Below are positions 1-30,881 of a stretch of 32,000 nucleotides of DNA, in pieces. The notes under the pieces were generated by a model, which was given only the letters and a program-made list of their open reading frames with translations, was not told the origin of the DNA and did no database searches. The position numbers were made by a program, and so were the translations under genes. The stretch is from NCBI GenBank assembly GCA_942493095.1, contig OW818675.1:1080001-1112000 (forward strand), written 5' to 3'. Source of the DNA: Candidatus Electronema halotolerans. GTDB lineage: Bacteria > Desulfobacterota > Desulfobulbia > Desulfobulbales > Desulfobulbaceae. How positions within the stretch are numbered: position 1 is the stretch's first letter; each line of letters begins with the position of its first letter.

Positions 1-1712
1 GCATGGTCGCTCTGCGCTGCCCGGTCTTCATCAAACCAGGCGCAGCAGACTGCCGGAGGCCAGTCCGGCTGCTCGCCGCAGCTGCGCTGATACACTGTCC
101 GGCCTGCCAAGTAAGCGGCAAACAAGGCTTTGATCAACGCGGGCGGCAGCGTGGCTGAGGAAATCAGCGCCCGCGAGCCGAGCAGGCCCGCCCAATGCAC
201 AAGGCGGCAAAGGGCGTGGGTGTCAGCAAGATCAAAATCATCCGGCTCGTCAAGAATCAGATCCGAGGTGAGCAGGCGGAGCATGGGCGCAATCTGTTTG
301 CCGCCCCGCGCCCCTTCTGTGGCTGGCATCAGATGATCAATCGTGCTGACTAAAATCGGCGCGCTGACCAATTGCAGCAGCTTGGGCGAATGCTTCAGCC
401 AAAGGCCGATGCGGCTGCCCGCCAAGTCGCCCTCATAGAGCAGATGCTGATCCGCGTCAAAGAGGTCTTCGCCGGATTCCGAGCCGGAGCCGCTGACCTG
501 CTCCTCCTGCCGCAGCTCATGCAGTTGCCGCACCGCCTGCGAGCCGATCAGCACGGCCAATTCATCTTCCTGAAGACGCAGCCGCTGCCGCAGCGCGTCG
601 CCGGTCTGCAAGGTCAGGGTGCGCAGACCCAAGGCGATGCTGAAACGGCAGCCGCGCCGTTCGTCCGCCAGCCCGTACATGATCCTGCCGTTGGCAAAGG
701 TCTTGCCGCAGCCGGTCGATGCCATGTTGATGCCGAAAAAGCCCTGCCGCTCCGAGCGCGTCCGCACCGCGCAGGCTATGTCAAAAGCTGCGTCCTGCCA
801 GGCAAAGCGGCCTCTGCCGCTCCGCTGCCTGAAGCCCTTGTGCCGGGCGAGAGCAGGGAGATGACGACGGAGCTGCGGCAGCCGCCGCGCCAGCAGCACC
901 GCGTGATGAGCCACGCCAATCAAGTGCTCGTCCAAGTGCTGCTTTTTCTCGCCAGTCTTGCGGTCAGTATTGGCTAACAGCTTGCATTTCTTGTCCCGCC
1001 AGACTGCGGCAGGCTCATGCGCCGACCAGATGTGATCGCCCAGCATCAGGGCCAGCCGGGCTGTGTGCATGGAAAAGACATCAGCCAGCCAGTCCTTTTC
1101 TCCGCTGAAGAGATCAGGCCGCCGCAAGGCCCGCTTGGCTAATGAGACCGCTGTCTTCTGCCACGTCGAGCTTTTCAGCGGCAATCCCTTGGCAAAGCTC
1201 CAGTTGTCCGCAATTTCCTTTACCTTCCAACTCTCCAAGCACTGAGGAGAATTCCAGCACGGCTCCAAGGCGGCGTTGAGGAATTCATCCGCCCGGCTGA
1301 CTGGCGGCTCTCCCTGCTGACCAGCAGCCTGCAACGGCCACTGCGGCAGCCGGTGGTGCGAGAGTATCAGCCAACCGATAATCCGGGCCAGCGGCTGGCC
1401 CTGCGCCTGCCAGAGCTTGAAGGGCTTGTCTTTGCTGCTCTGGCCAGTGCTGTCGCTGATCAGAGCGGCCAGCAGCACCTGTTCATCAATCTCCTGCGGC
1501 CTGAGCAGCCGCTCCAGCCAGTCCCGGTCAGGCAGCGTTCCGACAAAGGCTTGGAACAGGCGCAAAGACAGCCACTCATGGCGAAAGGCTTCAAAGGACT
1601 TGCCCTTGCCGCGCAGTTTCTTCTGAAACAGGACGTTTGCCTTGCCCAGATCGTGAAACAGCCCGGCCAAGCCTGCCAGCAGGGCGATGTCCTCGCTGAT
1701 ATTGTTGTTCAA
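1..1712 (-). CDS. cas3: Type I-F-like Cas3 HD nuclease / SF2 helicase, stand-alone (no N-terminal Cas2 domain); 3' end lies beyond the window
   Basis: Not in the ORF track because there is no stop in the window. My reverse-strand translation from TTG 1712 (AGGAGG at 1726-1721, 8 nt upstream; in-frame TAG just upstream) stays open to position 1. It reads LNNNISEDIALLAGLAGLFHDLGKAN...FRHEW...LSHHRL...LMLGDH (HD motifs), then NMASTGCGKTFANGRIMYGLAD (Walker A), STIDHLMP and LILDEPDDF (DExD box). It is collinear with I-F Cas2-3 proteins minus their Cas2 part. Confidence 0.9.
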   Translation of the reverse strand, partial: MNNNISEDIALLAGLAGLFHDLGKANVLFQKKLRGKGKSFEAFRHEWLSLRLFQAFVGTLPDRDWLERLLRPQEIDEQVLLAALISDSTGQSSKDKPFKLWQAQGQPLARIIGWLILSHHRLPQWPLQAAGQQGEPPVSRADEFLNAALEPCWNSPQCLESWKVKEIADNWSFAKGLPLKSSTWQKTAVSLAKRALRRPDLFSGEKDWLADVFSMHTARLALMLGDHIWSAHEPAAVWRDKKCKLLANTDRKTGEKKQHLDEHLIGVAHHAVLLARRLPQLRRHLPALARHKGFRQRSGRGRFAWQDAAFDIACAVRTRSERQGFFGINMASTGCGKTFANGRIMYGLADERRGCRFSIALGLRTLTLQTGDALRQRLRLQEDELAVLIGSQAVRQLHELRQEEQVSGSGSESGEDLFDADQHLLYEGDLAGSRIGLWLKHSPKLLQLVSAPILVSTIDHLMPATEGARGGKQIAPMLRLLTSDLILDEPDDFDLADTHALCRLVHWAGLLGSRALISSATLPPALIKALFAAYLAGRTVYQRSCGEQPDWPPAVCCAWFDEDRAAQSDH

Positions 1713-1749: not shown

Positions 1750-2310
1750 TCAAAACCACGGCACTGTGGCCGTGCTGCTCAGGCCGTAATCCGAGAAACT
1801 GCCCGGCTGCGGGCTGTCCTGCACCCTGCCCTGCTCAATGAAAAGCAAAAACTGCTGGCCAGTGGATGCGCTTCTCAGGCGGACATGCGGCAGCTTGAGC
1901 CGCTCCTCCTCAGTTGCTGCCGCCTTGACTGCCAGCTCGTCCGCACTCAGACGGCCATTGCGCACTGAGCGCCGGTAGAGCCGCTCCGCGCTGCTCTTAG
2001 CCTGCACCCGCTGCACGATTCTGTGGTGACAATCCGCCGGAACTGGCAGTGGGCCGGACGCGCTGAGATGGTCCCGCATTCCAGTCAGCCAGTCCAAGGC
2101 CATCAGCCGTTCAAGAGCTTGCGCTGTGCCGTGCAGGCGCAGGCAGTCACCCAAATTTTTTCCCGCCTTGGGAAAGCTGATGCCAATCGCGCCCTGCCCT
2201 GCCTCGCACAAGGCGCGGTGCAGCTTGGCAAACAAGGCGTTCATGAGCAGGGTCTCAGGAAACTCCGGGTCAGGCAGCAGGCGCAGTTCCAAATAATGCT
2301 CCATGCTCAT
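1750..2310 (-). CDS. cas6f: Cas6f (Csy4) crRNA endoribonuclease
   Basis: [31 protein letters not shown]...[11 protein letters not shown]...[17 protein letters not shown]...[11 protein letters not shown] is collinear with Csy4. The ATG at 2310 overlaps the cas7f stop (ATGA). The longer ORF-track start at 2526 lies inside cas7f and is not used. Confidence 0.93.
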
Positions 2311-3320
2311 TCCCCTTTCTCGCCAAACACGCCGCCCCGGATCAGCACGGCCATCACATAGTGCTGCTGCTCTGCCGGCGGCACCTTGCCTTTCACTGCC
2401 CACCCGTCCAAGAGGCTGTAAAAATCCTCTTTTTCCTTTGGCTGGCGATAGGCCTTGCCCCGGTTGGTGACTGAGCCATACGGCTCCACCGCAATCGGCC
2501 CGATTTCCGCCGCAGAAGAATGCCACGTGTCAATGGTGCGCAGGGCGTTGCCGATCTTCTGCGAGTGCATGGCCGCTGTGCCGCCCACTTGGTAGAGGGT
2601 CTTGCTCTTCTTGCCGGACTTGTCCAAAATCAGCTCTTGCGAAGGAAATACTTCCTGTCCCTTGCCGAGCCGGACAAAACCATCCACTTCCAGCAGCACA
2701 AAGGAGCGGCCCAGCAGTCCGGCGGCAATCACCTCAGCCAAGCTCTTCAGTTCCGCCGTCGGCTCGGCAAACTGCCGCAGCGCAACGCTAAGGCCGTCAA
2801 AGTTCCATTCCTGCGCTGCTTGCCCGTCCTGCATCTGCCGCACCCGCACGGCCACAGCCTCGGCTCCGACCCGGTTGCGCCAGAGAAAGCGGCCATTGGC
2901 AAGGTTGGCGGCATAGCGGGCGGCCAGCTTCCTGAAGCCCTGCTCCTGCGCATAGCTGTCAATCACTGCGGCCAAGGCGTTCTGATAGTCCTGATCATTG
3001 CAGGCTGAGGGCTGGGAGAGATTGCCCAGCACCCGCAACGTGAAACTGACCCGCAGGGTGTCCGCAGCAGCAGGCAGGGCGGCTGCATCCACGGTCTGCA
3101 AGTTGGGCTTCTGGATTTCCGCGTCCAATTTGGCCGGGTTCTGCTGCAGCGCGGCTTTCAGGCGGTTGGACATCGTGCCCCGGACCGATTTCTCCTGAAT
3201 GCTGACCGGCTGCCAGTCCTTGCCGCAGTCCCGGTTCTCCCAAGCTCCAGCATGGAGCAGCGCGTCCGAATTTGCCAGCTTGCGTTCAAATGCCAACACA
3301 GATGCGGTTTTCACAGCCAT
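2307..3320 (-). CDS. cas7f: Cas7f (Csy3) Cascade backbone subunit
   Basis: [25 protein letters not shown]...[17 protein letters not shown]...[10 protein letters not shown]...[11 protein letters not shown]...[16 protein letters not shown]...LIRGGVFGE are hallmark Csy3 sequence blocks. Confidence 0.95.
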
Positions 3321-3323
3321 GAT

Positions 3324-4289
3324 TCATTCTCCTTCAACAGATTGATTATTCACTGTTTGATATTCATTCCGGCATAGATACCAGCCGCTTTCCGGCTCGG
3401 CCTCATGCCGCCAGATCAGCTCGTCCAGCGTTTGCGCCCGGTGCGGACTGAGCCATTCACCAACGCTGTAAACAGTCTCGGCAAAGCAGAACCGAGTTTG
3501 GCTGTCGCGGGCACGGGCTACCTGTCCCGGCTCGTGCAGCGCAGAAATGCCCCGATACCCGACGGCCAGCGGCACCAGCCAGCCGCTGCCCGGCTTGGGA
3601 ACATGCCGCCATTCTGTTTTCTCTTTGCCTTCCTTCGGCAGCTTGGCCTTGTATTTCAGGGCGGCAAAATCCAGCCAAGCATCCAGCGGCTCTGCTGCCG
3701 GATTCGCTTCCCGCAGCGAACGGAAATGCTCTGCCAAAAGATCAGTCCGCTCGATCAAGGCAAAGCCGGGCAGCAGGCAACGGAGCTGCTTGCGGATGAA
3801 TTGCTGCCTTTGCTCCCAATCTTCGGGAAGATTGTCCAAAGTCGCTTCTTGCAGGTCAAGCACAGTGCCGCCTGCCAGCCGCTGGCAGCACACCAGCCGC
3901 CGGATTTCCTCCAGCCACGCCTTTTTCTCCTCGCCATCCAAGGGCAGCTCGCCGGTGAAGGGAATCAGCAGCGACACAGTCAGCCGCATCCGGCCTTCCT
4001 CAATAAAGGAGGATGTTTCACCCGCCTTGGTCAGCGGGTTGCGGCTGAGGGCAAAGACATGATCCCAGCCCTTGGGCTGATGCGTCTGCGCTTCATGCTC
4101 ATGACAAACAATGCCGCAGCCGGTCAGGGTCAGGCCCCATTCCGGCGGCAGCTTGCGCGACAGGGCATGAGTGAAGCCGAGAAAGGCGGACACTGCCGGA
4201 AAGCCCCATGTCAGTCCGACCACAGCATTGGCGTTCTCCACCCTGATGCGCCGAAGCAGCAGCAGTCCTTGCTCTTTCATCATGATCAT
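3324..4289 (-). CDS. cas5f: Cas5f (Csy2)
   Basis: From ATG 4289 (it overlaps the cas8f stop as ATGA): MIMMKEQGLLLLRRIRVENANAVVGLTWGFPAVSAFLGF.HAL...LLPGFALI...GWLVPLAVGY...GEWLSPHR, collinear with Csy2. The ORF-track start at 4349 is probably too far upstream. Confidence 0.9.
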   Translation of the reverse strand: MIMMKEQGLLLLRRIRVENANAVVGLTWGFPAVSAFLGFTHALSRKLPPEWGLTLTGCGIVCHEHEAQTHQPKGWDHVFALSRNPLTKAGETSSFIEEGRMRLTVSLLIPFTGELPLDGEEKKAWLEEIRRLVCCQRLAGGTVLDLQEATLDNLPEDWEQRQQFIRKQLRCLLPGFALIERTDLLAEHFRSLREANPAAEPLDAWLDFAALKYKAKLPKEGKEKTEWRHVPKPGSGWLVPLAVGYRGISALHEPGQVARARDSQTRFCFAETVYSVGEWLSPHRAQTLDELIWRHEAEPESGWYLCRNEYQTVNNQSVEGE

Positions 4290-5623
4290 GCCAAGGCCTC
4301 CAGATCGTCTTTGAGTAGCCGCAGTTTCTTGCGCAGCAGACTCTTCCATTCGCCATGCTCCGCATCACCCGTAAAAAGAACCTGCCTGCCTTTCCCTTTG
4401 TCAATCCGCCTGTTCAGCCAGCGGGCAAAGCGGTCAGCAATTTCTTCCTGCCAGTCGTTCCGCTCCCGCTCGGCTCCGAATTCCTCATCAGCTGAACCCC
4501 GCCGGGGATCAAGCCAGAGTTGTTCGACTCTGTCCAGCCTGCATTCCGGCCTGCTGCTCCAGCCTGCGGCAAAGCTGTGTTGGATTTCAGCGGCATATTG
4601 GAGGAGCTGATCAATAATGCGGTCAATCAGCTCGGCCCGCCGGTCACGGATGGCAAGCGTGCTGTCTTTGTCCAGCACACGCTCAAGAAACGTGTTCAGG
4701 AGAGAGGTTTCCCGATAAACCCGTGCGCCGAAATGATGCCGTGAAAACAAGGTGCTGGTGTTCAGCGGCGGAGCGGTCATGCGCTTCCATGTCGGCGGGG
4801 CGCAGGAGAGCAGATGCACTTTGCCGCCACGTCTGATGTTAAGCTGGCTGACAACCTGTGGATTGCTGCCGCCAAAGTTCATCACTGCCGTATTCGGGTA
4901 ATCCACAGTCAGCGATTCGTGGAATGCCTCCTCCCGCCTTGCCTTGCGCGCTTCCTTGGCTGCATCGGAAAAGCGGGCTTCCTGCATCCGTTCATAGATT
5001 GCTTGGGCCAAGGATGACGAGAAAAGCGGCGAAAGCAGGTGATATTCTCCGGCACCGACCGGAAAATAGAGCTGCTTGGCCAAGGTGTGCGAACTGGGCT
5101 TGGCAGCAGAGACCGCTTGGGCGAAGCCTTTCAGCCAGTCGGCAAGCTGCGCGTCGCTTTTGGCAAAAGGCCGCAGCGGCTCGGCATCGCCTGCCCGGAT
5201 ATGGTCGAGCAGCATTCTGCCGTCCTGCTCCAATTGCAGCAATGCGGCAACGTCCAAGGCACCAGCATTACCGCTAACATCAATCGAGGGCCGGGCCAGC
5301 GAGGCCGTGCTGATCAGCGCGCCTTCCGGCATCCCATCTGGCTGCTGCGGCCCCGGCCCGGCATAGCAGCTTGTTGCGCCTTTGGCCTGCGAATTGGTGA
5401 ACTTGACCGGGTGAGTTGTGAACTGAATCTGTCCAGCCCGCCGGGCCGCATCGGTCAGCCACTCGGCAGGCGCAAACTTGCTCTTCAAGGCAAGCTCTTC
5501 CTCTGCCAAATCCGCTTCCAGCTCCGGGCTGGCTGCCGCTTTTTTCGCCAATGCCTCCAGCTTGGGCGCGGCCCGCCCGGCGATGAAGGCGGATATCTGT
5601 GCGGATAAGCTTTCTTCTTCCAT
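4286..5623 (-). CDS. cas8f: Cas8f (Csy1) large subunit
   Basis: AEWLTDAARRAGQIQ..TH..K...VSGNAGALDV...HTLAKQLYFP...YHLLSPLF...ARFSDAAKEAR...FGGSNPQ..SQLN...LAIRDRRAELI...LLQYAAEI...EQLWLDP are Csy1 blocks. An AGGAG RBS lies about 10 nt upstream of ATG 5623. Confidence 0.93.
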   Translation of the reverse strand: MEEESLSAQISAFIAGRAAPKLEALAKKAAASPELEADLAEEELALKSKFAPAEWLTDAARRAGQIQFTTHPVKFTNSQAKGATSCYAGPGPQQPDGMPEGALISTASLARPSIDVSGNAGALDVAALLQLEQDGRMLLDHIRAGDAEPLRPFAKSDAQLADWLKGFAQAVSAAKPSSHTLAKQLYFPVGAGEYHLLSPLFSSSLAQAIYERMQEARFSDAAKEARKARREEAFHESLTVDYPNTAVMNFGGSNPQVVSQLNIRRGGKVHLLSCAPPTWKRMTAPPLNTSTLFSRHHFGARVYRETSLLNTFLERVLDKDSTLAIRDRRAELIDRIIDQLLQYAAEIQHSFAAGWSSRPECRLDRVEQLWLDPRRGSADEEFGAERERNDWQEEIADRFARWLNRRIDKGKGRQVLFTGDAEHGEWKSLLRKKLRLLKDDLEALA

Positions 5624-5641
5624 AGTTGCTGTTCTCCTGTG

Positions 5642-5818
5642 CTAACAGAGGGTTTGCTCTCTTCGCCACCAGCCAAGTTGTTCAATCAAATTGGACAGGT
5701 TGCCTCCAACCACAGTCCAAGCCCACGCCGCTTTTTTGAGCACGGCCTGCAAAACAAGGATCACCAAAAATGCCGCTGCTTCGTTGGCAGCGGCTTGAAG
5801 GGCTGTGCTGATGCTCAT
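5642..5818 (-). CDS. Small hydrophobic protein (58 aa), first ORF of the cas transcription unit; function unknown
   Basis: Below the ORF-track size cutoff, so I translated it by hand: MSISTALQAAANEAAAFLVILVLQAVLKKAAWAWTVVGGNLSNLIEQLGWWRREQTLC. A GGAG (5826-5823) lies 4 nt before ATG 5818, and the stop at 5642 is 18 nt before the cas8f ATG. Coding status is unproven. Confidence 0.4.
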   Translation of the reverse strand: MSISTALQAAANEAAAFLVILVLQAVLKKAAWAWTVVGGNLSNLIEQLGWWRREQTLC

Positions 5819-5824
5819 TTTTCT

Positions 5825-5847
5825 CCATATTAGTTATATTGAAATGT
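5825..5847 (+). promoter_or_regulatory. PAM-flanked partial protospacer (predicted Cascade operator) in the 5' UTR of the cas operon
   Basis: CC (5825-5826) is followed by ATATTAGTTATATTGAAATGT. This matches the mini-array psi-spacer at 16/19 positions, plus 2 more nt. It lies between the -10 box and the RBS of the small ORF. Confidence 0.6.
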
Positions 5848-5856
5848 ACAGACGAA

Positions 5857-5885
5857 ATTATAGGGCGGATAAAGGGGGCTGTCAA
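5857..5885 (-). promoter_or_regulatory. Perfect-consensus sigma70 promoter driving the small ORF and the cas8f-cas3 operon
   Basis: On the minus strand, TTGACA (5885-5880), a 17-nt spacer, then TATAAT (5862-5857). The predicted TSS is near 5850, about 30 nt upstream of ATG 5818. Confidence 0.65.
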
Positions 5886-5894
5886 TCCCTGATC

Positions 5895-5923
5895 TTGTAC
5901 AACACAAAAAAAACAGGTATAAT
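5895..5923 (+). promoter_or_regulatory. Promoter of the mini-CRISPR (divergent from the cas promoter)
   Basis: TTGTAC (5895-5900), a 17-nt spacer, then TATAAT (5918-5923). It ends 1 nt before psi-repeat 1, and its -35 box is 9 bp from the -35 box of the cas promoter. Confidence 0.6.
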
Positions 5924-5924
5924 T

Positions 5925-6002
5925 TTCATACTGCCGCACAGGCTAGCTTAGAAAATATTCGTTATGCTGAAATGTTAAACTGCCGCACAGGCAGAATGCC
6001 CG
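5925..6002 (+). CRISPR. Degenerate two-repeat type I-F mini-CRISPR (crRNA-like regulatory RNA, CreA/CreR-type)
   Basis: Psi-repeat 1 is TTCATACTGCCGCACAGGCTAGCTTAGAAA (5925-5954). It resembles the I-F consensus GTTCACTGCCG.A.AGGCAGCTTAGAAA with 2 inserted bases and an intact CTTAGAAA handle. The spacer is 19 nt (5955-5973). Psi-repeat 2 is GTTAAACTGCCGCACAGGCAG.. (5974 onward), with an intact CTGCC-GCACA-GGCAG Cas6f hairpin and a degenerate 3' part. It is oriented opposite to the cas genes. Confidence 0.75.
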
Positions 6003-6024
6003 GAGCGTTGCTCCGGGTTTGTTT
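5999..6024 (+). terminator. Rho-independent terminator of the mini-CRISPR transcript
   Basis: CCCGGAGC-GTT-GCTCCGGG stem-loop followed by TTTGTTT. Confidence 0.7.
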
Positions 6025-6044
6025 GAGTGTGCGGCGAGTAACCC

Positions 6045-6644
6045 ATGAATCCCGCCTCACACTTTCTCATTAGCTGGCTGACCGCCAACACCATCCAGCT
6101 CGACCGGCGCGAGCGGTTCCTCATCACCTTCAGCGGCCTGGCCCCGGATGCGGACGGACTGGGGATCATCGGCGACCTTCTCACTCGCAACAGCGACAAG
6201 CCCTTGCAGTGGTGGGGCGAGTATCACCATCTGCTGGGGCACAACATAGCCTTTGGCTGCTGTCTGGCAGCAGGCACCTTTTTTTTGGCCAAGCAACGGA
6301 AAGCCGCTGCCGCCCTGCTGGCCCTGATCAGCTTTCATCTTCATCTCTTCTGCGACCTGATCGGCTCACGCGGCCCGGACGGCTATCAATGGCCCCTGCC
6401 CTACCTCTGGCCTTTTTCTGATGCGTGGCAATGGGCATGGCAGGGCCAGTGGGCTTTGGATGCCTGGCCCAACCTGCTGATCACAGTGGCCGTGCTTGCG
6501 GCAACCTTCCTTATGGCCTGGCAATCTGGCCGTTCACCGCTGGAATTCATCTCCAGCAGAGCGAACGCCGCCTTTGTCGCAAGCCTGCGTTCCCGCTTTG
6601 GCGAGCCAAGAATGGAAGAGAGAAAAGAACCTGCTTGTTCCTGA
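6045..6644 (+). CDS. Membrane-bound metal-dependent hydrolase (DUF457/YdjM-like)
   Basis: MNPASHFLISWL...GLAPDADGLG...YHHLLGHNIAFG...HLHLFCDLIGSRG. It has several hydrophobic segments and the His/Asp pattern typical of the family. Confidence 0.6.
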   Translation: MNPASHFLISWLTANTIQLDRRERFLITFSGLAPDADGLGIIGDLLTRNSDKPLQWWGEYHHLLGHNIAFGCCLAAGTFFLAKQRKAAAALLALISFHLHLFCDLIGSRGPDGYQWPLPYLWPFSDAWQWAWQGQWALDAWPNLLITVAVLAATFLMAWQSGRSPLEFISSRANAAFVASLRSRFGEPRMEERKEPACS

Positions 6645-12882: not shown

Positions 12883-14146
12883 CTTACCATCCATCACTTT
12901 TCTTGACAGAGCTTGAACGCCGGAGTAAAAAGATTGAAAAAACAATTCGTTTATTCAAACTCTGTGAAATATGAGCACGATCAGTCATCTGGCAGAGGAA
13001 ATCTCGTCCGGCCTGCGAGACGTTTTGCCCGGAATTAACAGGAATCCTCTGCGCAAGTTAAGCTTGTGCGCGGCGGCGGTTTTGGAAGTTCAGAGTTGCA
13101 ATACTATGGACATGGCGGCTGTCCTTCCGCTGGAAACAGAACGGATTGACATGCGATATCAGTGGTTAAGCCGTTTCCTGAGCACAGACTCAATCGACAA
13201 TGATGATGTGATGCGGCCTTTCATCCGTCAGGCATTGGAGACGGCCTCCGCTTCGGGAGAAACGCTGATTCTGTGCATTGACCAGACGCAGCTATCCGAC
13301 CGTTTCGGCATTCTTTCGCTGTCATTGCGCTTCGGCGGTCGGGCCCTGCCTCTGCTATGGCGGGTCCGAAAAGGACAGGGCAATATCGGCTCGGATATCT
13401 GCATGGAACTTCTTGAAAAAATAAAATCATTCCTTCCAGAGGGCAGCAGAGTGCTGCTGCTCGGCGACCGTTTTTACGGTCAAGCGCCGCTGATTGCATT
13501 CTGCCACCGCAGCGGCTGGGATTATCGGCTCCGCCTCAAGGAAAATCTTAAAGTTTTCAATGAGGCCGGCGATGAGACATCTCTTGCGGACCTTGTTCCT
13601 GCTGAAAAGAAAGGTCGCAAGGAACTGCTTATGAAAAATATTTATCTGACAGAACAGCGGGTTCAGACAAATTTAAGCATTCTCCAGGAGCCGGGACATG
13701 ATGAGCCTTGGCTGCTGGCAGTCGGAGGAACTGAGCCAAATTATTATAAAACACTTGATTACGGCATGCGCTGGGGATGCGAGGCCATGTTCAGCGATTT
13801 CAAAACCAGGGGGTTCGGTTTGGAGGACACAAAACTGGAGCGCGCCGACAGAATCGCCAGACTGATGCTGATCCTCTCGGTCGCCATGCACTGGTGCGTA
13901 CTCGCCGGACTCCGCGACAGGATGCGGAACCCGCTTCCAAGAGAAAAAAAACTGAAAATTTCGGATTTGACGACGTTGCCGACAAGGATGCGGAACAGCA
14001 TGAGCTGCCGCCAGTCGTCAGAAAAACTTGGAGAAGTGTCTGTTCTTATTTCAAAAGAGGACTCAGGCTGCTCAGAAGATACGCTCAGATGCTCCGTCCC
14101 CTGCCTCCCTTGTTTTTTACATTGCGAAAAAGTGATGGATGGTAAG
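12883..14146 (+). mobile_element. IS4-family insertion sequence (1264 bp) inserted into the RAYT gene
   Basis: The terminal inverted repeats are CTTACCATCCATCACTTTT (12883-) and AAAAGTGATGGATGGTAAG (-14146). A 10-bp direct target duplication GCCCCGACGG sits at 12873-12882 and 14147-14156. An internal TTGACA-17-TAAAAA (12903-) precedes the transposase. Confidence 0.85.
12971..14145 (+). CDS. IS4-family DDE transposase; a -1 frame change at the A8 run (13944-13951) is needed to reach the IS-internal stop
   Basis: LCIDQT (D), LLLGDRFY (D) and YGMRWGCEAMFSDFK (the Y-2-R-3-E-6-K signature). The zero frame reads through the IS end to 14188. The -1 frame gives ..KTENFGFDD...SYFKRGLRLLRRY... and stops at 14145 inside the right IR. 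Confidence 0.75.
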
Positions 14147-14427
14147 GCCCCGACGGTGTCGGTCAAAACCACAATTCCATGCAGATGATTCGGCATGATG
14201 ACCCATTCATCCAATGCCGAATGTGGAAAATGCGATGGAATTTCCCGCCAGCATTGTGCCGCAATCCGGCCTGCCGCATTCAACATCATTACACCGTCCG
14301 CAATTTCCCCAAATAAACATTCGTGGTTATGGGTGCAGACGGTGACAAAATACGCCCCGGCCTGCGAATAATCGTAATCACGCAGGCGGATGGAACGGCG
14401 ATGATGAATATCGGGATTGTATTGCAT
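14147..14427 (-). pseudogene. RAYT, N-terminal part
   Basis: MQYNPDIHHRRSIRLRDYDYSQAGAYFVTVCTHNHECLFGEI......PNHLHGIVVLTDTVGA is the IS200-like Y1 HUH (HLH) motif region. The ORF-track continuation past 14147 runs into IS sequence. Confidence 0.8.
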
Positions 14428-14628: not shown

Positions 14629-17600
14629 CTACCAAGCACCAATAGCAGCACCTCCTATAAAATCGTTTAAATCGTTATCTGGGCGAAACGATTCATCCGG
14701 TTTTATCGGATAAGGCATACATGATTTACCAGTAGTAAACTTTCCTGCATTTTCTAAAAAATCATCAACATTTTCATAGAAACCGCTATCAAAATCATCA
14801 ATGAATTTGAAATAATTGTTTTTTAGTGATTTCACTCCAAACAACTTTGACTTCCAGTTTACAGGAGGTCTCCCTACATCTCCTCGTGGAAATAATTGTT
14901 TTTTGATTATCCTCTTAAAAGGAGACATAATCAACTCCTCTGAGAGGTCTAAAATATTAAAACCTTCGTTCAAGGCTTTGCTTTTGCTAATATTTATTTT
15001 TTCATCATCTTTTATTTGTCTTATGATCTCTCTTGCTGATTCATCAATCCCATCGTATAGGTATTCTCCACCTTTCAATATGTATTTTCCGTATTTATAG
15101 TCATCTATTGCAGATGATACATATTTATACGATTTTATTCCTTTTCCAACTTTATTTAATCCTGCTGGAACAAAAGGAATAGCTGTTGCAATAAGGTCTA
15201 AACCAAGATCAAACCCAGCAGATTTCAATCCATTTAAGGCATCCTTTTTAAGGCATTCATCATCATTCATATTGGCAGCAATCAACTCTCCTGTTGACCA
15301 AGCAATTCGAGCAAGATCAACTCCAACATTAGCAGCATCCCATAATGTATCGATAAAATAACCATTTTTATCGATATAATTCACCGGATTATTTTCAACA
15401 TACCCAAACCTATGCAAACTCCCCGGCTCATCCAACCTTCCCCTGTACACATCCTGCCCCATCCACACCCCAGTTTCCGGCTCATAATGCCGTGCGCCGA
15501 ACCAGACTAAGCCGGTGTTCTCATCAAATTCCTTGCCCGTCAGCGTGTAATGGTTGTGCGGATCAGTGAAATTGCCATTCTCCGGGATCACTGCCCCGTA
15601 TGGTTCATAGCGGTAGGTGTGGGCCGCATTGCCGTTCTGCTTGGTCAGCCCGGCCACATCGCCCTTGCGGTTGTAGTGGTACCAGTGGAGCTGGCCTGCC
15701 GCGCCGGAGTTGAAATGCTGACTGACACTGATTTCGTTGTCCGTGCCGCGATAATAGTTGTCATACTGACCGTTTAACTGATTGTACTCCGCCACCGGAT
15801 CAAGTCCGTCAAAAGCGTACTCAACCCGCTTCAGACCACCTTTGCCAGCCTTGGGGTCGTAGCTCTGGGCCAAGCGTCTGCCGCCGCCGTCATAGTCCAG
15901 CAGGGTCACAGCCCGGTTTATCCGATTCTTGCCGCCCTTGCCTGCAAGCTGATAGTCCAAAGCTCTGATCAGGCGGTTTTCCGGGTCAAAGCTGTAGTCT
16001 GTGCCATACACCGGGCCGTTGCTGTCGCGCTCCGTCCGACCGATGCGGCTGCCGTTGCTATCGTAGCGGTATTCTTGAATAATGCTGCGGTTCGGGTTCG
16101 CAGTCATGGAATTGGTCTCAGCCCGCAGGAGCTGATTGGCGGCGTTGTAGGCGTAGGTTCTGCTGAAACCGTCACCGGGCTGCGCCGTGCTCAGGTCGTC
16201 GTCCGTCTGCCAAGAAAGGCGGTTGCCGACCGGATCATAGGCATAGCGCATTGTCGCTGTATTGCCATTGTTTTTCAGCGGGCTGATGCTGACTTCCGCC
16301 AAACGGCGCAGGCCGTCGTAGGCATAGCTTTCCTGCTGCTCTTCCGGGTTGCGCCAGCCATAGCGTTTGCTGGCCTCAATGACATGGCCCAGCTCGTTGT
16401 AAGTATAGGCAAAGGCAACGATATTCTTGCCCTTGGCAGCAGTGGCCCGGCTCAGAGTGCGGTACACCCGGTCATATTCAATTTCGGTTTCCGTCGTGTT
16501 GGCATTGACGATCTTGGTGACGCTGCCGACCTTGTTGCGGCTGTATTCGGTCTGTTGGGACAATTCATGAATTGTCCCTACGGTCATCATTTGCAGCCAG
16601 TTGTTCGGACTGTAGGCGTATTCCACCAGACTGCCGTCCGGGTAGCGCAGAGCGGTGCGGTTGCTGTCCGCATCGTAGGCAAAGGCCAACGCACTGCCGA
16701 GCGGATCAGTTGTGCCGGTCACGCGGCCCAAGGGGTCATACTGCCAGTTTGTCTCGCCCAGCCAGTCTTTCATCAGGGTGCGGCGGTTGTCCGCGTCGTA
16801 GGCATAGCTGACCGCCGAGCCGTCGGCATAAGCAATGCGTTGCAGCAGATCATCCGGGAAAAAGGCGTACTCAGTCAGGGCATTGTTGCCGTCCTTGCGG
16901 CTGATCCGGTTGCCCATGCCGTCATAGGCATACTGCCACGTCTTGCCGAGCGGGTCAGTTTCCTGAAGCAGATTGCCGACTTTGTCATAAGAAAAACGAG
17001 TGGCCGCATTATTGGCATTGACGATTTCCAAGAGCAGACCACGGGCATCATAAGCGTAGCGGGTGACGGCATTCACGTCATCAGCCGGAGCCGCGCCGGG
17101 CCGCCAATTCTGGATTACTTGGTTCAGACGGTACAGGCCGTCATGACCGTAGCGAGTCACGCCCCCGTCCGCCTCAACAAGCTGAACTTTATTACCCATC
17201 AAATCATAGACATAGCCGATTGTTTCGTCTTCTGCATTGGTGCGGCTAATCTTGCGGTCAAGATCGTCGTAAATGTACTGCGTCGCATTACCTTCAGCAT
17301 CAGTTCTGCTGATCAGATTATCCACCTTATCATAGGCATAGCTCGTTGTTCCGTCTTCAAAATCAACCGCTTCAACCCGGCGGTGAGCGGCATCGTAGGC
17401 AAAAGAAGCCTGATGGCCGAGCGGATCGGTCAGGCTGGTGAGATTGCCTGCCAAATCATAGCCGTATTCTACAGTCACATTGCTCTGCTGATCCGCAGCT
17501 TGGGCCGGGTCATAGTTGCGGATCATGGCGGCCCGGCGGTCAAGGGCATCGTATTCGTAGCGGGTGACAATGCCCAAGGCAGAGGTCTTGCTGATCAGGT

Positions 17601-20526
17601 TGCCGTCCGTGTCATGGCCGTAGCTGACTGCATGGCCTTCCGGGTCGGTCACGCTCTTCAGACGGGCTGTCGGTGTCCAGCTCAGGGCGGTGCTGTAGCC
17701 CCGTGGATTCAAGGCTTGGAGCAGATTGCCCATTGGGTCATAGCTGAACTGCCATTCATAGCCTTCCGGGTCGCGGCTGGCAATGCGGCGGCTTTGCAGG
17801 TCATAGCTGTAGCTGAAGACATTGCCTGCCGGATCGGTCTTAGCCAGCAGGTCGCCGACCAAGTTGTATTCGTAGCGGGTCGTCACGTTGGTGTCCGCAG
17901 AAGCGGCAAAGCCGGGCCGCCAGTTGCGGGTCACAGAAACAGGCCGGCCCAAGGCATCGTATTCGGTATGTGTGACTGTGCCGTTCGCATCGGTGAAATC
18001 GGTGATTCTGCCGTGTTCGTCGCGCTGATAGCTGAACTCGGCATCTAACGGCCCGGAAACCTTGGCCAGCCGGAGCATGGAATCATGGACGTATTCCCAT
18101 TTGCGGCCCTCGGCATCAGTGAAGCCGGTCTTTTCAGCCATCAGGCCATACTCGAATCTGGCCGCCTCAAAGCCGAGCTGGTTGACGATCAGCTCCGGCT
18201 TGTCCGAAGCATTATGCGTCAAACGGACTTCACCGCCGTTCGGATCAACCTTGCTTTCCGGCAGATTATTGGCGTTGTATGAAAATTCCAGATGAAAGCC
18301 AATTGGCCCATCTACTGCGGTCAAATTTCCCGCCTTGTCATAGGCGTACCTGTACTGTCCGCCGAGTGGCTTGGTCATGGTCTTGAGGCGGCCAAGCCCG
18401 TCATGCTCCAGCGCAGTGACTGCATTTTCCGCATCCGTGACCATGACCAAATCGCCTGCCGCATCGTAGCTGCGGTTTGAAACGTTGCCGTTCAGGTCAG
18501 TCATCTGCACCGGCAGGCCTCTGTCATCGTAAGTCACTGCGCCGCAGGCATTGAGGGCGTTGCAGAATTCCGTCAAATTGCCCCTGTCATCGTAAGTAAA
18601 GGTGCTGGCCCGTTCGGTCGCCTCATCCACCTTTTCGGTCATCTTCGTGACCTGATTGCGCTCATTGTACTCCCAAGCCCGGTGCCAGCCGAGCGGCCCG
18701 TCCGCAGTCAGGCGGTTGCCGTTCTTGTCAAACGTCCAGTGCCATTCCGCCCCGCTCTGATCGGTGTAGCCGGTGCGGTTCAGGTCATTGTCATACTCGA
18801 ACTGTTCAACTGTGCCGTCCCGGTGTTCAAGGCGGATAAGGCGCAGGTCGGCATCATAATGATGCACTTCGGCGTTGCCGTAAGCATCTGTGACCGTAGT
18901 TTTGCCGTTTTCGTAGCTGAAGGACTGTTCCGCGCTCTCGCCGACAATCTGGCTGCTGACTCGGTATTCTTCATCATAGCTGTTGCGCACGACCGGGTGC
19001 CCTTTGGCTGAAATTATTTCAGTCATCTGGCCATGATCGTCATAATGGTACGCAGTGCGGTTGCCTTTGCCGTCAACAAAAGCGGCAAGCAGGCCGTCTT
19101 CGTATTCGTAGCGCAGGGTGATGTCCTCCGGCAGCCGGGCCTCAATGATCTGGCCGTCATCATTCAAGGTGAACTCAACCCGCCGTCCGCCTGAATTCTC
19201 GACTGCGGCCAGCTTGCCGTCCGCATAGATCAGCCTGATCTGATTGCCGTTGCGGTCAGTCAGGGCCGTCAAATGGCCTTTGCTGTCAAAGCGTTTTTCT
19301 TCGGATGAGGAACAGCCGCAGTCTGCGGGCCGCAGCACGTACTCGCCGCCTTCCTTGGTTACCACGTCATGGGTGCCGGGGCTGTCTGACACATAGCTGC
19401 TGCCGGATTTCTTGAAATTGGCCGTGTGGCCGTCGGCATAAAGCACCTGCACCCCTTGAAAAGCAGGCTTCATGTCAATCTTGAGCAGATACTGGCCCAG
19501 CTCGGAAGTCCAGCCCTTGCCGAAATACTGCGGCGGCTGGGCCTTGATCTTCACCTTGCCGTCCGGGTAATGACGGGTCAATGTGGCCGGAGAACGCAAA
19601 GCAGCCAAGGAGTTATAGGCGCGGGCCAGCCGGATCGTGCTGTTGCCCGGCCCGGCCACGCTGCCGTCGGTTTCATCATAGACAAAGTTGCCGATGGCCG
19701 TGTTGACTGGGTCGCCGGTGTGCCGCTGCGAACCGCCGCAATTGCCGCATTTCAGAGATTGACCCCACCAAGCCGAACCCGGAGAAAAATAGTTGTACTC
19801 CATTGAAGCGGACATGCCGGGGCATAAGCCTTTGACCTCAATGGTGTTGCTGCTGTCCGTCTTCATGCCGGTGCTGTCCGAGCCAGTGTAACCGCCAGAG
19901 CCGGTTTTCATCTCAGATTCGCTGTCGTTTACCTCCAAGGTCGGATCATCTCCGGCATTCTCTACATCCGCCTTGACCGCAACTTCACCGTTGCCCAAGT
20001 CAACGTGATCCACGTAACTGATAGCTGGCGGCGGGAATAGACAAGCTCCGCCAGCACCGCCGCCTACAACAGCGTAAAGCCGTTTATAGCCCGGATAGGA
20101 GCCGCCTGACAGGTAGGGAAGCACACTGCCGTCATCGGTGATGATGTCGAAAAAAATGAAGAACACGCCACCTTCCGGCGGCAGGGTGAAATTGAAATTG
20201 GCCGTGACTTGGCCGGGGCCGCCGTCTGGTGCTAAAGAGAAAGTGGAGTAACTGCCGCTGACCGTCCCGGCATAAGGAACATAGCTGAAGCCCGTCCATT
20301 GATACACGTCCGGGTTGCTTAACGTGAAGCCCTTGATCGGGCAGCCGGTGTTGTTGACCAAACCCCAAACTTGGGTGAAATTCGGCCCCGGCCCACTGGC
20401 CGGAACTTCCCAATTTGCGTACAGCGGTTCCCGTTCATCGCATTGGTAAGCTGATGCTGCGGAAGTGAAAAGGAAAAAGACTGCAAGAAGCAGTAGGGAG
20501 GCGGACAGATAATGACTGGCTCTCAT
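14629..20526 (-). CDS. Rhs/YD-repeat polymorphic toxin with an N-terminal Sec signal peptide and a variable C-terminal domain
   Basis: From ATG 20526 (GGAG 8 nt upstream): MRASHYLSASLLLLAVFFLFTSAASA (signal). Dozens of YD repeats follow (Y.YD..G.L, e.g. YAYDKAGNLTAV, YEYDALDRR). The core ends at RFGYVENNPVNYIDKNGYF (DPxGL-type boundary) and is followed by a 241-aa tail. Confidence 0.92.
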   Translation of the reverse strand: MRASHYLSASLLLLAVFFLFTSAASAYQCDEREPLYANWEVPASGPGPNFTQVWGLVNNTGCPIKGFTLSNPDVYQWTGFSYVPYAGTVSGSYSTFSLAPDGGPGQVTANFNFTLPPEGGVFFIFFDIITDDGSVLPYLSGGSYPGYKRLYAVVGGGAGGACLFPPPAISYVDHVDLGNGEVAVKADVENAGDDPTLEVNDSESEMKTGSGGYTGSDSTGMKTDSSNTIEVKGLCPGMSASMEYNYFSPGSAWWGQSLKCGNCGGSQRHTGDPVNTAIGNFVYDETDGSVAGPGNSTIRLARAYNSLAALRSPATLTRHYPDGKVKIKAQPPQYFGKGWTSELGQYLLKIDMKPAFQGVQVLYADGHTANFKKSGSSYVSDSPGTHDVVTKEGGEYVLRPADCGCSSSEEKRFDSKGHLTALTDRNGNQIRLIYADGKLAAVENSGGRRVEFTLNDDGQIIEARLPEDITLRYEYEDGLLAAFVDGKGNRTAYHYDDHGQMTEIISAKGHPVVRNSYDEEYRVSSQIVGESAEQSFSYENGKTTVTDAYGNAEVHHYDADLRLIRLEHRDGTVEQFEYDNDLNRTGYTDQSGAEWHWTFDKNGNRLTADGPLGWHRAWEYNERNQVTKMTEKVDEATERASTFTYDDRGNLTEFCNALNACGAVTYDDRGLPVQMTDLNGNVSNRSYDAAGDLVMVTDAENAVTALEHDGLGRLKTMTKPLGGQYRYAYDKAGNLTAVDGPIGFHLEFSYNANNLPESKVDPNGGEVRLTHNASDKPELIVNQLGFEAARFEYGLMAEKTGFTDAEGRKWEYVHDSMLRLAKVSGPLDAEFSYQRDEHGRITDFTDANGTVTHTEYDALGRPVSVTRNWRPGFAASADTNVTTRYEYNLVGDLLAKTDPAGNVFSYSYDLQSRRIASRDPEGYEWQFSYDPMGNLLQALNPRGYSTALSWTPTARLKSVTDPEGHAVSYGHDTDGNLISKTSALGIVTRYEYDALDRRAAMIRNYDPAQAADQQSNVTVEYGYDLAGNLTSLTDPLGHQASFAYDAAHRRVEAVDFEDGTTSYAYDKVDNLISRTDAEGNATQYIYDDLDRKISRTNAEDETIGYVYDLMGNKVQLVEADGGVTRYGHDGLYRLNQVIQNWRPGAAPADDVNAVTRYAYDARGLLLEIVNANNAATRFSYDKVGNLLQETDPLGKTWQYAYDGMGNRISRKDGNNALTEYAFFPDDLLQRIAYADGSAVSYAYDADNRRTLMKDWLGETNWQYDPLGRVTGTTDPLGSALAFAYDADSNRTALRYPDGSLVEYAYSPNNWLQMMTVGTIHELSQQTEYSRNKVGSVTKIVNANTTETEIEYDRVYRTLSRATAAKGKNIVAFAYTYNELGHVIEASKRYGWRNPEEQQESYAYDGLRRLAEVSISPLKNNGNTATMRYAYDPVGNRLSWQTDDDLSTAQPGDGFSRTYAYNAANQLLRAETNSMTANPNRSIIQEYRYDSNGSRIGRTERDSNGPVYGTDYSFDPENRLIRALDYQLAGKGGKNRINRAVTLLDYDGGGRRLAQSYDPKAGKGGLKRVEYAFDGLDPVAEYNQLNGQYDNYYRGTDNEISVSQHFNSGAAGQLHWYHYNRKGDVAGLTKQNGNAAHTYRYEPYGAVIPENGNFTDPHNHYTLTGKEFDENTGLVWFGARHYEPETGVWMGQDVYRGRLDEPGSLHRFGYVENNPVNYIDKNGYFIDTLWDAANVGVDLARIAWSTGELIAANMNDDECLKKDALNGLKSAGFDLGLDLIATAIPFVPAGLNKVGKGIKSYKYVSSAIDDYKYGKYILKGGEYLYDGIDESAREIIRQIKDDEKINISKSKALNEGFNILDLSEELIMSPFKRIIKKQLFPRGDVGRPPVNWKSKLFGVKSLKNNYFKFIDDFDSGFYENVDDFLENAGKFTTGKSCMPYPIKPDESFRPDNDLNDFIGGAAIGAW
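16557..16578. repeat. REP2 palindrome copy embedded in frame in the rhs coding sequence
   Basis: GGGACAATTCATGAATTGTCCC is identical to the REP2 cores at 12623 and 14522. It is translated as ..MMTVGTIHELSQQ.. within Rhs. Confidence 0.85.
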
Positions 20527-20584
20527 GGAAGTGTCTCCGCTGCGGGGAAGGCTGGACTGCTGGATGAATGAGCTGCAAAGCCCA

Positions 20585-20614
20585 AACATACCAATACTTG
20601 GTAAAAACTGTCAA
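20585..20614 (-). promoter_or_regulatory. Candidate sigma70 promoter for rhs
   Basis: On the minus strand, TTGACA (20614-20609), an 18-nt spacer, then TATGTT (20590-20585). The -35 box sits in the palindrome AAAACTGT-TG-ACAGTTTT. Confidence 0.4.
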
Positions 20615-29525: not shown

Positions 29526-30881
29526 TCAACGAACATGCTTGGCAGCACCTCCCAGCTTGTCAGTCAGCATTTCCACCTGCTGGCGGACGCTGCTTTGCTG
29601 GACGATATTGCGGCTGACTGTCTTGATCGCATAGAGCACCGTGGAGTGATCCCGGTTGTAGAGACCGCCAATGTTGGCCAGCGACTCCTCGGTGTATTTC
29701 CGGGTCAGATACATGGCTATCTGACGGGGAAAGCTGATGTTCCGCTTGCGGGAGCGGGAGATCAGCTCATCTATGGAAACCCGGAACTGACTGCTGATCA
29801 GCTCGCGGATGCCTTGGCCGCTCAGGCTCTTCCGGCTGACCGGATCGAGATTGATCAGCCCCTCCAAAACCTCGCGCACCATGTCTGTGTCAGGCGAGGC
29901 GTTGCAGAGATTCGCCTTGGCCCGCAGACCCAGCACCGCGTTTTCAATCCGGCGGATGTCGCCTTGAATATGTTCGGCCAGCAGATGCACATGCTCGTCC
30001 GTTAGCGGCAGTTGGCTGAGACCGGCCTTGCAGCGGATGATCGCCGCTCTGGTGCTGTACTCCGGGGCCTTGATGTCTGTGACCAAGCCGGAACTCATGC
30101 GCGAACGGAAATCCTCATCCACGCCGGTAAGCGAGCGCGGGGCCACGGCTGAGGTGAGAATGACCCGCTTCCCGGACTTGATCAGGAAATCCAAGATATT
30201 GTTCAGCTCCTCCTGGGTCTTGGTCTTGCCGCTCAGGGTGTGGACATCCTCGACCAAGAGCAGATCGCAGCCCTGAATGAAGCGGCTGGAAAACTGCTCC
30301 ATCGTGTTCTCGCGGATGTTCTTGACCATCTCTGCCGAGAACTGCTGGGCAGTCAGGTAATGGAGGCGGGTCTGCGGCGCGCTGTGCATGACCTGATGCA
30401 CCACAGCCTGGGTGAGGTGACTCTTGCCCAAGCCTGTGCCGGAGGTGAGAAACAGGCTGCTGCCAAAGGCGGGATCCGCATCAGCAATGGCCCGGCAGAC
30501 CGTGCGGGCGAGCAGATTGGACTGCCCGACCATGAACTGCTCAAAGGTGTAGCCGGGATGAAGGGAGCGCACTGCGGCCTTGAACTTGTTCATGCCGGGC
30601 AGACGGAGCTGACCAGAGCCGTTCGCTTCCGGCTGCGGCGCAGGCATGGCCTCAGAGACGGTCAGCGAGACCTTTGGCGGCGAACTGCTCAGGCTGCTCA
30701 GACTGGCCTCAATCAGCTTCAGGTAGCGGTCCCGCACCCAAGTGCAAAAGAAGCGGTCTGGGCAGGCTATCTCCAGCACCTGCCTGCTCTCCCGGACGCA
30801 GGCGATGGGTTTGATCCAGAGGCTGTACTCGCTGGCGGAAAGCGTGGCGGACAGGGATTGCTTGACAGTTTCCCAAAGCAT
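29526..30881 (-). CDS. dnaA: Chromosomal replication initiator protein DnaA
   Basis: MLWETVKQSL...YSLWIKPI (domain I); FLTSGTGLGKSHLTQAV (Walker A); LLLVEDVH (Walker B); ..IRELISSQF.VSIDELISRSRKRNISFPRQIAMYLTRKYT..SLANIGGLYNRDHSTVLYAIK (domain IV). Confidence 0.93.
   Translation of the reverse strand: MLWETVKQSLSATLSASEYSLWIKPIACVRESRQVLEIACPDRFFCTWVRDRYLKLIEASLSSLSSSPPKVSLTVSEAMPAPQPEANGSGQLRLPGMNKFKAAVRSLHPGYTFEQFMVGQSNLLARTVCRAIADADPAFGSSLFLTSGTGLGKSHLTQAVVHQVMHSAPQTRLHYLTAQQFSAEMVKNIRENTMEQFSSRFIQGCDLLLVEDVHTLSGKTKTQEELNNILDFLIKSGKRVILTSAVAPRSLTGVDEDFRSRMSSGLVTDIKAPEYSTRAAIIRCKAGLSQLPLTDEHVHLLAEHIQGDIRRIENAVLGLRAKANLCNASPDTDMVREVLEGLINLDPVSRKSLSGQGIRELISSQFRVSIDELISRSRKRNISFPRQIAMYLTRKYTEESLANIGGLYNRDHSTVLYAIKTVSRNIVQQSSVRQQVEMLTDKLGGAAKHVR

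Follow-up and report, generated by a model that had tools for sequence, protein, structure and literature searches.

The mini-array and its self-match

The stretch of DNA analyzed here (the window) comprises 32,000 nucleotides of the cable bacterium Candidatus Electronema halotolerans (contig OW818675.1, positions 1,080,001 to 1,112,000), and its left end carries the cas genes of a type I-F CRISPR system, identified with Pfam and NCBIfam as csy1-4 and cas3f, with the effector operon on the minus strand. At a distance of 302 nt upstream of cas8f (csy1), and divergent from it, there is a small unit made of two degenerate repeats (psi-repeats) around a short spacer (psi-spacer), which a first-pass annotation, made from the sequence without database searches, had read as a CreR/CreA-like mini-array aimed at the promoter of its own cas operon. 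The promoter, degenerate repeat, 19-nt spacer, second repeat and terminator of this plus-strand unit (5925-6025) were all located by reading the window sequence:

5896-5923, plus strand: mini-array promoter, TGTACA-16-TATAAT, with the -10 element at 5918-5923 (promoter scan)
5925-5954, plus strand: psi-repeat 1, with a hairpin at 5931-5946, CTGCC-GCACA-GGC[T]AG, containing a single bulged base
5955-5973, plus strand: psi-spacer ATATTCGTTATGCTGAAAT, 19 nt, the predicted guide
5974-6002, plus strand: psi-repeat 2, consisting of GTTAAA, an intact Cas6f hairpin CTGCC-GCACA-GGCAG at 5980-5994 and a degenerate 3' half
5998-6025, plus strand: intrinsic terminator that ends the mini-array, with TTGTTT directly after a 9-bp stem at 5998-6018 (promoter/terminator scan, RNAfold)

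The promoter given in the first-pass annotation as TTGTAC-17 and the TGTACA-16-TATAAT of the promoter scan are one site, and the predicted transcript start, at ~5930, falls at the foot of the psi-repeat 1 hairpin. The counterpart promoters in two related loci described below read TTGCAA-17-TATAGT (L001) and TTGCAA-17-TATAAT (L130). The psi-spacer, the hairpin and degenerate 3' half of psi-repeat 2, and the terminator also lie where the annotation had put them, and the psi-repeat 2 hairpin and the terminator both form in the RNAfold minimum-free-energy structure. Psi-repeat 1 was described only partly correctly: its 8-nt 5' handle CTTAGAAA (5947-5954) is indeed intact, but the hairpin, which had been called broken, is weakened by its bulge rather than abolished, with RNAfold retaining just 3 bp. 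The predicted mature RNA runs from 5947 to 5994 and is 48 nt long.

No canonical CRISPR array lies inside the 32-kb window. The real repeat of the system, GTTCACTGCCGCACAGGCAGCTTAGAAA, is found with a 60-nt period after cas3 on L124, a second contig carrying the window's locus. The cores of the psi-repeats are identical to this repeat, and, judged by that identity, they derive from the locus's own repeat. Compared with it, psi-repeat 1 has one additional base in the 3' stem arm (GGC-T-AG) and extra bases 5' of the stem. Rfam returns two sub-threshold CRISPR-DR4 matches on the plus strand, at 5930-5954 and 5980-5994, the one at psi-repeat 1 scoring 22.5 bits over model positions 5-28. The unit thus has the makeup of the type I-F mini-arrays that encode CRISPR RNA-like RNAs (crlRNAs): degenerate copies of the system's own repeat around a short spacer, outside an array and beside cas genes.

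Three features lie between the mini-array and cas8f:

5857-5885, minus strand: consensus sigma-70 promoter TTGACA-17-TATAAT, 12/12 consensus positions (promoter scan)
5825-5845, plus strand: target of the psi-spacer, consisting of the protospacer adjacent motif (PAM) CC at 5825-5826 and the protospacer ATATTAGTTATATTGAAAT at 5827-5845 (window sequence, chance controls)
5642-5818, minus strand: conserved 58-aa open reading frame (ORF; MSISTALQAAANEAAAFLVILVLQAVLKKAAWAWTVVGGNLSNLIEQLGWWRREQTLC), the first gene after the target, ending 18 nt before cas8f

The promoter scan recovers the perfect minus-strand promoter at 5885-5857 that the annotation had pointed out. It is the sole promoter-like site on that strand within 5500-6150, its start is predicted near 5850, and its TTGACA is kept in the related loci L001, L122 and L130. 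The match of the psi-spacer was also accurately described: 16 of its 19 positions are identical to 5827-5845, the ones that differ being 6, 12 and 13, identity extends to positions 20-21, and CC stands at 5825-5826. The seed is perfect (10/10, positions 1-5 and 7-11). We therefore have a partial spacer match, PAM-proximal part first, to a nearby CC-flanked chromosomal site, and, as in CreR, this site adjoins the one promoter-like sequence found ahead of csy1-4 and cas3. The target covers ~+6 to +26 of the minus-strand transcript, the start itself being predicted, and its PAM overlaps the Shine-Dalgarno sequence GGAGAAA (complement of 5820-5826). It had been placed between the promoter and the ribosome-binding site, which is right; "aimed at the promoter" is less so, since the -35/-10 core is untouched and the target belongs to the 5' untranslated region (5'UTR).

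The 32-kb window contains a single CC followed by the seed (<=1 mismatch), where 0.03 would be expected, and of 5000 spacer shuffles that preserve composition just one gives a CC-flanked 10/10 seed in the local 540 nt. On these two counts the spacer-target match is not chance. The same shuffle control gave 0/5000 in each of the three other variants of the module, to which we now turn.

Spacer and target in related loci

Related loci were collected from a Cas8f scan of a genome collection, which gave L001 only, and from protein searches and contig look-ups. The module is present in four independent variants from related Desulfobulbaceae loci, namely the window, L122, L001/L123/L129 and L130, whose Cas8f or small-ORF identity to the window is ~64%-72%. 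In every variant the mini-array is divergent and carries a promoter of its own, the 5'UTR contains a CC-flanked target, and a homologue of the small ORF is followed after 15-18 nt by cas8f. The mini-array is the best-conserved part of the intergenic alignment.

The spacers of the four variants differ, although in all four of them the cognate seed matches at 10/10 positions and the CC PAM is kept. When spacers and targets are swapped between variants, the non-cognate pairs match at 5-8 of 10 seed positions, and in one variant a one-base change of length occurs in spacer and target alike. Judging from these pairs, spacer and target covary with retention of the PAM, which is the comparative check that the first-pass annotation had asked of its own reading. 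It had also proposed that positions 6 and 12 are free of pairing, and we find position 6 mismatched in three variants and position 12 in all four. Every sixth position is known to be unpaired in type I-F (10.1101/2023.03.03.530964).

The bulge in psi-repeat 1 recurs in L122 (GGCCAG) and L001 (GGTCAG). We considered whether it is a conserved feature of the module and rejected this, as psi-repeat 1 of L130 has a regular 5-bp stem, CTGTT/AGCAG, with compensatory changes, and the bulge is limited to the window/L122/L001 group. The guide of L130 (1600-1690, minus strand of that locus) is extremely short for type I-F: its handle is TTTAGAAA, the distance from the handle to the psi-repeat 2 hairpin is 18 nt, and the guide is ~13 nt, with a 10/10 seed and a CC PAM nonetheless.

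Other relatives have neither the mini-array nor the small ORF. Both are absent from L125, which has a Cas8f 96% identical to that of the window, the same hemA-lpxD-ydjM synteny and a gap of 151 nt upstream of cas8f; from L126 (Cas8f 89% identical); and from L127 (Cas8f 77% identical), where ~40 nt of the 3' end of the ORF remain and the flank is common to L122. In these module-less loci (L125 2350-2500, L126 2360-2500, L127 100-235) a different conserved stretch precedes cas8f, about GCCGCATAAAGCGGCTCTGTTGAAAAAA, and it loosely resembles psi-repeat 1 (CTGCCGCA...GCT.TG..GAAAA), of which it could be a decayed remnant. The more distant L131 and L132, with the canonical order cas2-3 then csy1, are without the small ORF. 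A single I-F repeat-like hairpin is found in L132 (~1305-1399), opposite the cas8f strand in the 93-nt gap between cas3 and cas8f, and it is probably a one-repeat crlRNA gene.

Given that very close relatives lack the module, it is evidently dispensable, and both of its repeats are degenerate, as would be expected if it were a non-functional relic, either what is left of the end of an old array or a self-targeting spacer that no longer works, whose resemblance to 5827-5845 is incidental. However, such a relic would not be expected to have its own promoter and terminator, nor to be conserved across loci with Cas8f only 64-72% identical, as the best-conserved intergenic stretch, with a covarying seed and a retained PAM, and the shuffle controls make a chance match very unlikely. 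We regard this explanation as very improbable indeed.

The same comparison bears on whether the mini-array transcript could act as an antisense RNA, independently of Cas proteins, by pairing with the 5'UTR of the ORF/cas mRNA and blocking translation or causing decay. The spacer is complementary to the minus-strand mRNA at ~+6 to +24, adjoining the Shine-Dalgarno sequence, and similar RNA-RNA complementarity was remarked for the CreA of Acinetobacter (PMC10097628). Antisense pairing does not explain, however, why CC stands directly 5' of the match in all four variants, why the 8-nt handle and the Cas6f hairpin are conserved, or why positions 6 and 12 are mismatched, and in Acinetobacter the repression was transcriptional and PAM-dependent (PMC10097628). 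This makes an antisense mechanism improbable, if somewhat less so than a relic.

We also looked for a phage-derived mimic. A search with handle plus seed gave 73 matches in viral contigs, all of them AT-rich chance matches without a nearby I-F hairpin, and the bulged psi-repeat 1 pattern gave 0 matches, so the idea was rejected.

Proposed regulation of the cas operon

We consider it likely that the unit at 5896-6025 is a crlRNA gene, of the CreR/CreA type, of the adjacent I-F system, and that it guides Cascade to the promoter region of Cascade's own operon, repressing it without cleavage. The CreR/CreA-like reading of the first-pass annotation is supported by the I-F cas genes, the repeat-derived psi-repeats, the unit's own promoter and terminator, the covariation, and the published I-F designs discussed below. 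The genes of the operon are the following:

4286-5623, minus strand: cas8f (csy1) (Pfam/NCBIfam)
~3324-4289, minus strand: cas5f (csy2) (Pfam/NCBIfam; start from the L124 gene call)
2307-3320, minus strand: cas7f (csy3) (Pfam/NCBIfam)
~1750-2310, minus strand: cas6f (csy4) (Pfam/NCBIfam, L124)
1-1712 (start approximate), minus strand: cas3f, running past the window edge; full length 996 aa on L124, followed by the CRISPR array

Under the proposed mechanism the mini-array would be transcribed from its own promoter, Cas6f would bind the intact hairpin of psi-repeat 2, and Cas5f and Cas8f would hold the CTTAGAAA handle. The product would be an RNA of ~48 nt, 12 nt below the normal 60-nt CRISPR RNA (crRNA), and, from the 6-nt periodicity of Cas7f binding, the resulting Cascade may contain about two fewer Cas7f subunits. 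This short-guide Cascade would recognize the CC PAM at 5825-5826, and at 5827-5845 its guide would pair with the non-template strand of the initially transcribed region, reaching into the ribosome-binding site. With so short and partial a match, Cascade would be expected to bind without licensing Cas3 and to stand in the way of RNA polymerase as a roadblock. The 58-aa ORF would then be transcribed less, and so would csy1-4 and cas3, because no other promoter lies between them and the ORF, which would amount to negative feedback on Cascade. The promoter would be released once Cascade was titrated away by numerous crRNAs or inhibited by anti-CRISPRs.

The ORF, csy1-4 and cas3 are probably all driven from the repressed promoter, given that it is the single promoter-like site on the minus strand and that similarity to the module-less L125 resumes ~25 nt before the cas8f ATG, which leaves no space for a separate conserved cas8f promoter.

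Several points weigh against this interpretation. We infer transcription, processing, Cascade loading, repression, non-cleavage and any toxicity from the sequence. The bulge in psi-repeat 1 weakens the very hairpin that Cas6f would need to free the 5' handle. The target is downstream of the start, which is itself predicted, and outside the -35/-10 core. Position 13 is a true mismatch where pairing is expected. Finally, an internal cas8f promoter that a consensus scan would miss may exist inside the small ORF.

Regulation of this type is already known. I-F1 mini-arrays aimed at the cas8 promoter, with repression but without restriction, have been described by Shmakov et al. (10.1101/2023.03.03.530964), and the autoregulatory form was named CreR by Liu et al. 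(10.1101/2023.03.10.532045). In both studies, as in the window, a degenerate mini-array beside cas8 has a partial match to the cas8 promoter region at a cognate PAM, with sixth-position mismatches, and non-cleaving repression was shown in P. aeruginosa YL84 (10.1101/2023.03.10.532045; 10.1101/2023.03.03.530964). CreR usually has no associated toxin gene, whereas the window has a conserved ORF between the target and cas8f. The spacers here are also shorter, 19-20 nt (13 nt in L130), compared with the 23-27 nt typical of bacterial I-F CreA/CreR spacers (10.1101/2024.10.29.618823).

The I-F CreTA of Acinetobacter sp. WCHA45 (PMC10097628) closely resembles the unit in layout. It occupies a ~400-bp region directly upstream of csy1, its creA consists of psiR1, a 20-nt psiS and psiR2, with 17/20 pairing, a mismatch at position 6 and a CC PAM, and its target lies downstream of the controlled promoter, with a Shine-Dalgarno-led ORF divergent from creA. 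It differs in that creA controls a 33-bp mini-ORF acting as an RNA toxin, whereas the window has a 58-aa ORF under protein-level purifying selection; in that the module is between cas3 and csy1, whereas cas3 in the window is downstream of csy4; and in that the bulged base of psi-repeat 1 is found in the window. CreTA is present in about 26% of P. aeruginosa I-F loci (10.64898/2026.06.02.729485). The CreTA1 and CreTA2 elements of that species are likewise crlRNA genes upstream of csy1 with a nearby CC-flanked target that is unmatched at positions 6 and 12 and is followed by a small gene, but their toxin is a minimal RNA with two proline codons (10.64898/2026.06.02.729485), in contrast to the window ORF, which is proline-free and conserved as a protein. 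These elements have been read by others as Cascade autoregulators (10.1101/2023.03.03.530964).

In the CrePA module of the Acinetobacter baylyi ADP1 I-F system (10.1101/2024.01.05.574328), CreA and the Csy complex repress a protein gene just upstream of csy1, and this repression is released by anti-CRISPRs. The repressed protein there, CreP, comes from phages, has 103 aa with a KilA-C domain, and blocks cell division, unlike the product of the window ORF, which has 58 aa, no Pfam, NCBIfam or PHROG match and a predicted single helix.

To gauge how common such units are, we scanned metagenome contigs with a pattern consisting of the I-F handle followed by the I-F hairpin 21-29 nt later, and found at least 120 stretches with short-spacer mini-arrays. 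Among the matches listed, a perfect seed next to a CC is found within 700 nt for 42 of the 93 distinct mini-arrays, almost always on the same strand and in many cases with a mismatch at position 6, and most of the mini-arrays are divergent and 50-380 nt upstream of cas8f. The novelty of the unit had been overrated: the class is published and abundant, the mechanism is already known, and what is new, modestly so, is the conserved 58-aa gene at the head of the repressed operon.

A search of the literature on CRISPR in cable bacteria found nothing on this mini-array, and the analysis extends crlRNA (CreR/CreA) regulation of I-F systems to this group (Ca. Electronema, Desulfobulbaceae). It also provides a natural covariation series, four spacer-target pairs with a constant PAM and free positions 6 and 12, and by comparison of sequences this supports guide-directed self-repression. 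For annotation, the intergenic unit should be labeled a regulatory mini-array rather than a stray repeat, and the neighboring "hypothetical protein" should be flagged as candidate CRISPR-repressed cargo.

The 58-aa gene ahead of cas8f

The target had been said to precede the first ORF of the cas operon, and so it does, although this ORF is the conserved 58-aa frame at 5818..5642, which the first-pass annotation had not singled out, rather than cas8f. Its NCBI annotation is hypothetical protein GCAAIG_05020 (Ca. Electronema halotolerans). In a comparison of the window with L122 the ORF has a pN (nonsynonymous differences) of 0.16 and a pS (synonymous differences) of 0.64, for a dN/dS of ~0.13, and because of this ratio we conclude that it is a real protein gene under purifying selection. 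The protein has two hydrophobic stretches with KK or RR between them and a conserved C-terminal motif, KKAxxxWxVxGGxLSxxIExLGWWRRE. AlphaFold2 predicts a single long helix (pLDDT, the per-residue confidence score, 80), which is too featureless for a useful fold search. There is no match to a Pfam, NCBIfam or PHROG family, and when 1.84 billion representative proteins were searched exhaustively with a profile, just 4 clusters were recovered.

The ORF accompanies the mini-array in the window, L122, L001/L129 and L130, and among the loci compared it was never found alone. It is most likely CRISPR-repressed cargo, and its distribution fits toxin-like cargo unable to persist once its guide is gone. 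Because ORF and mini-array are present or absent together, it is possibly a protein toxin under CRISPR repression, in which case the module would resemble CrePA in addition to CreR. Our more specific proposal is tentative: a new CRISPR-repressed protein toxin, small, helical and partly hydrophobic, unrelated to the KilA-C CreP and sharing the Cascade transcript, so that one target site would combine autoregulation with addiction or with anti-anti-CRISPR abortive infection. The circumstantial points in its favor are the joint gain and loss with the mini-array, the hydrophobic helical segments, and L001, which has Cascade genes only. On the other side, the N-terminal hydrophobic segment is not kept in L130, searches of Pfam, NCBIfam and PHROG gave no similarity to known toxins, and co-transcription of a toxin with its own repressor genes would be an unusual arrangement. 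The ORF also shows no homology to a known CreT or CreP, with no match to the KilA-C domain of CreP and, in the window, none of the proline codons of the CreT RNAs.

About equally plausible, in our judgment, is that the crlRNA autoregulates the cas operon only and that the 58-aa ORF does no harm, being an accessory or leader gene that encodes, for example, a small protein associated with Cascade or with the membrane. Since 18 nt separate the ORF from cas8f and both have the same sole promoter, the ORF would be expressed whenever Cascade is, which is a poor fit for a toxin. Moreover, among the matches listed in the metagenome scan, many I-F mini-arrays upstream of cas8f have ORF-less gaps of 50-160 nt, and autoregulatory I-F mini-arrays have been demonstrated experimentally (10.1101/2023.03.03.530964). 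Against a harmless leader, the ORF does not occur without the mini-array and both are lost in three close relatives, and so narrow a family suits an addictive add-on better than a core accessory. L001 (2392-6552; Desulfobulbaceae UBA5173) also speaks against it: csy1-4, the ORF and the mini-array are retained, while neither a cas3 homologue nor other I-F repeats were found in the 12 kb fetched (to 11968), as one would predict were an addiction module to protect the Cascade genes and nothing else. The L001 locus may be a Cascade-only remnant. Downstream of it are a DNA methylase and ORFs of no assigned function, on the opposite strand.

If the 58-aa protein is toxic, crlRNAs would control two unrelated classes of protein toxin, this second one being co-transcribed with the Cascade genes that repress it, and L001 would be a case of Cascade genes maintained through addiction. 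In other I-F lineages, with Cas8f 42-45% identical to that of the window, we observed unrelated ORFs of 51-62 aa that lie between the crlRNA target and cas8f and contain a hydrophobic stretch (L055 2663-2851; L062, reverse-complement, 1248-1415; L106 8022-8177), those of L055 and L062 being mutually related (E = 3e-4). Should the toxin proposal hold, these ORFs would point to repeated recruitment of membrane-peptide toxins.

Two other roles for the ORF were considered and rejected. A rare-codon RNA toxin was suggested by CGA-AGA near the 3' end of the ORF in the window and L001, but the codons are CGA-AAG in L122 and CGG-AGG in L130, and the ORF is under protein-level selection. A terminator-like hairpin at 5794..5772 on the minus strand, an 8-bp stem followed by ATTTTTGG at the AAANEAAAF codons, could have been an attenuator inside the ORF; it is probably a by-product of the alanine codons, because synonymous changes break the stem in L122.

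The order of the genes, csy1-4, cas3 and then the CRISPR array, is unusual (window 1-1712, minus strand; L124 4166-7292). Cas3f opens directly with its HD domain, and its alignment to the I-F Cas3 model begins only at position 109 of 1110, so the Cas2 domain is absent; L131, a more distant relative, retains the canonical Cas2-3 fusion upstream of csy1. No cas1 or cas2 was seen between the operon and the array, and the locus has the look of an I-F system that lacks a neighboring adaptation module. In the window the mini-array module adjoins a ydjM-like housekeeping gene. Elsewhere in the window are a DDE transposase (12971-14188, plus strand), a 1986-aa RHS-repeat protein (14629-20589, minus strand) and dnaA (29526-30881, minus strand), which places the cas locus within ~25 kb of dnaA.

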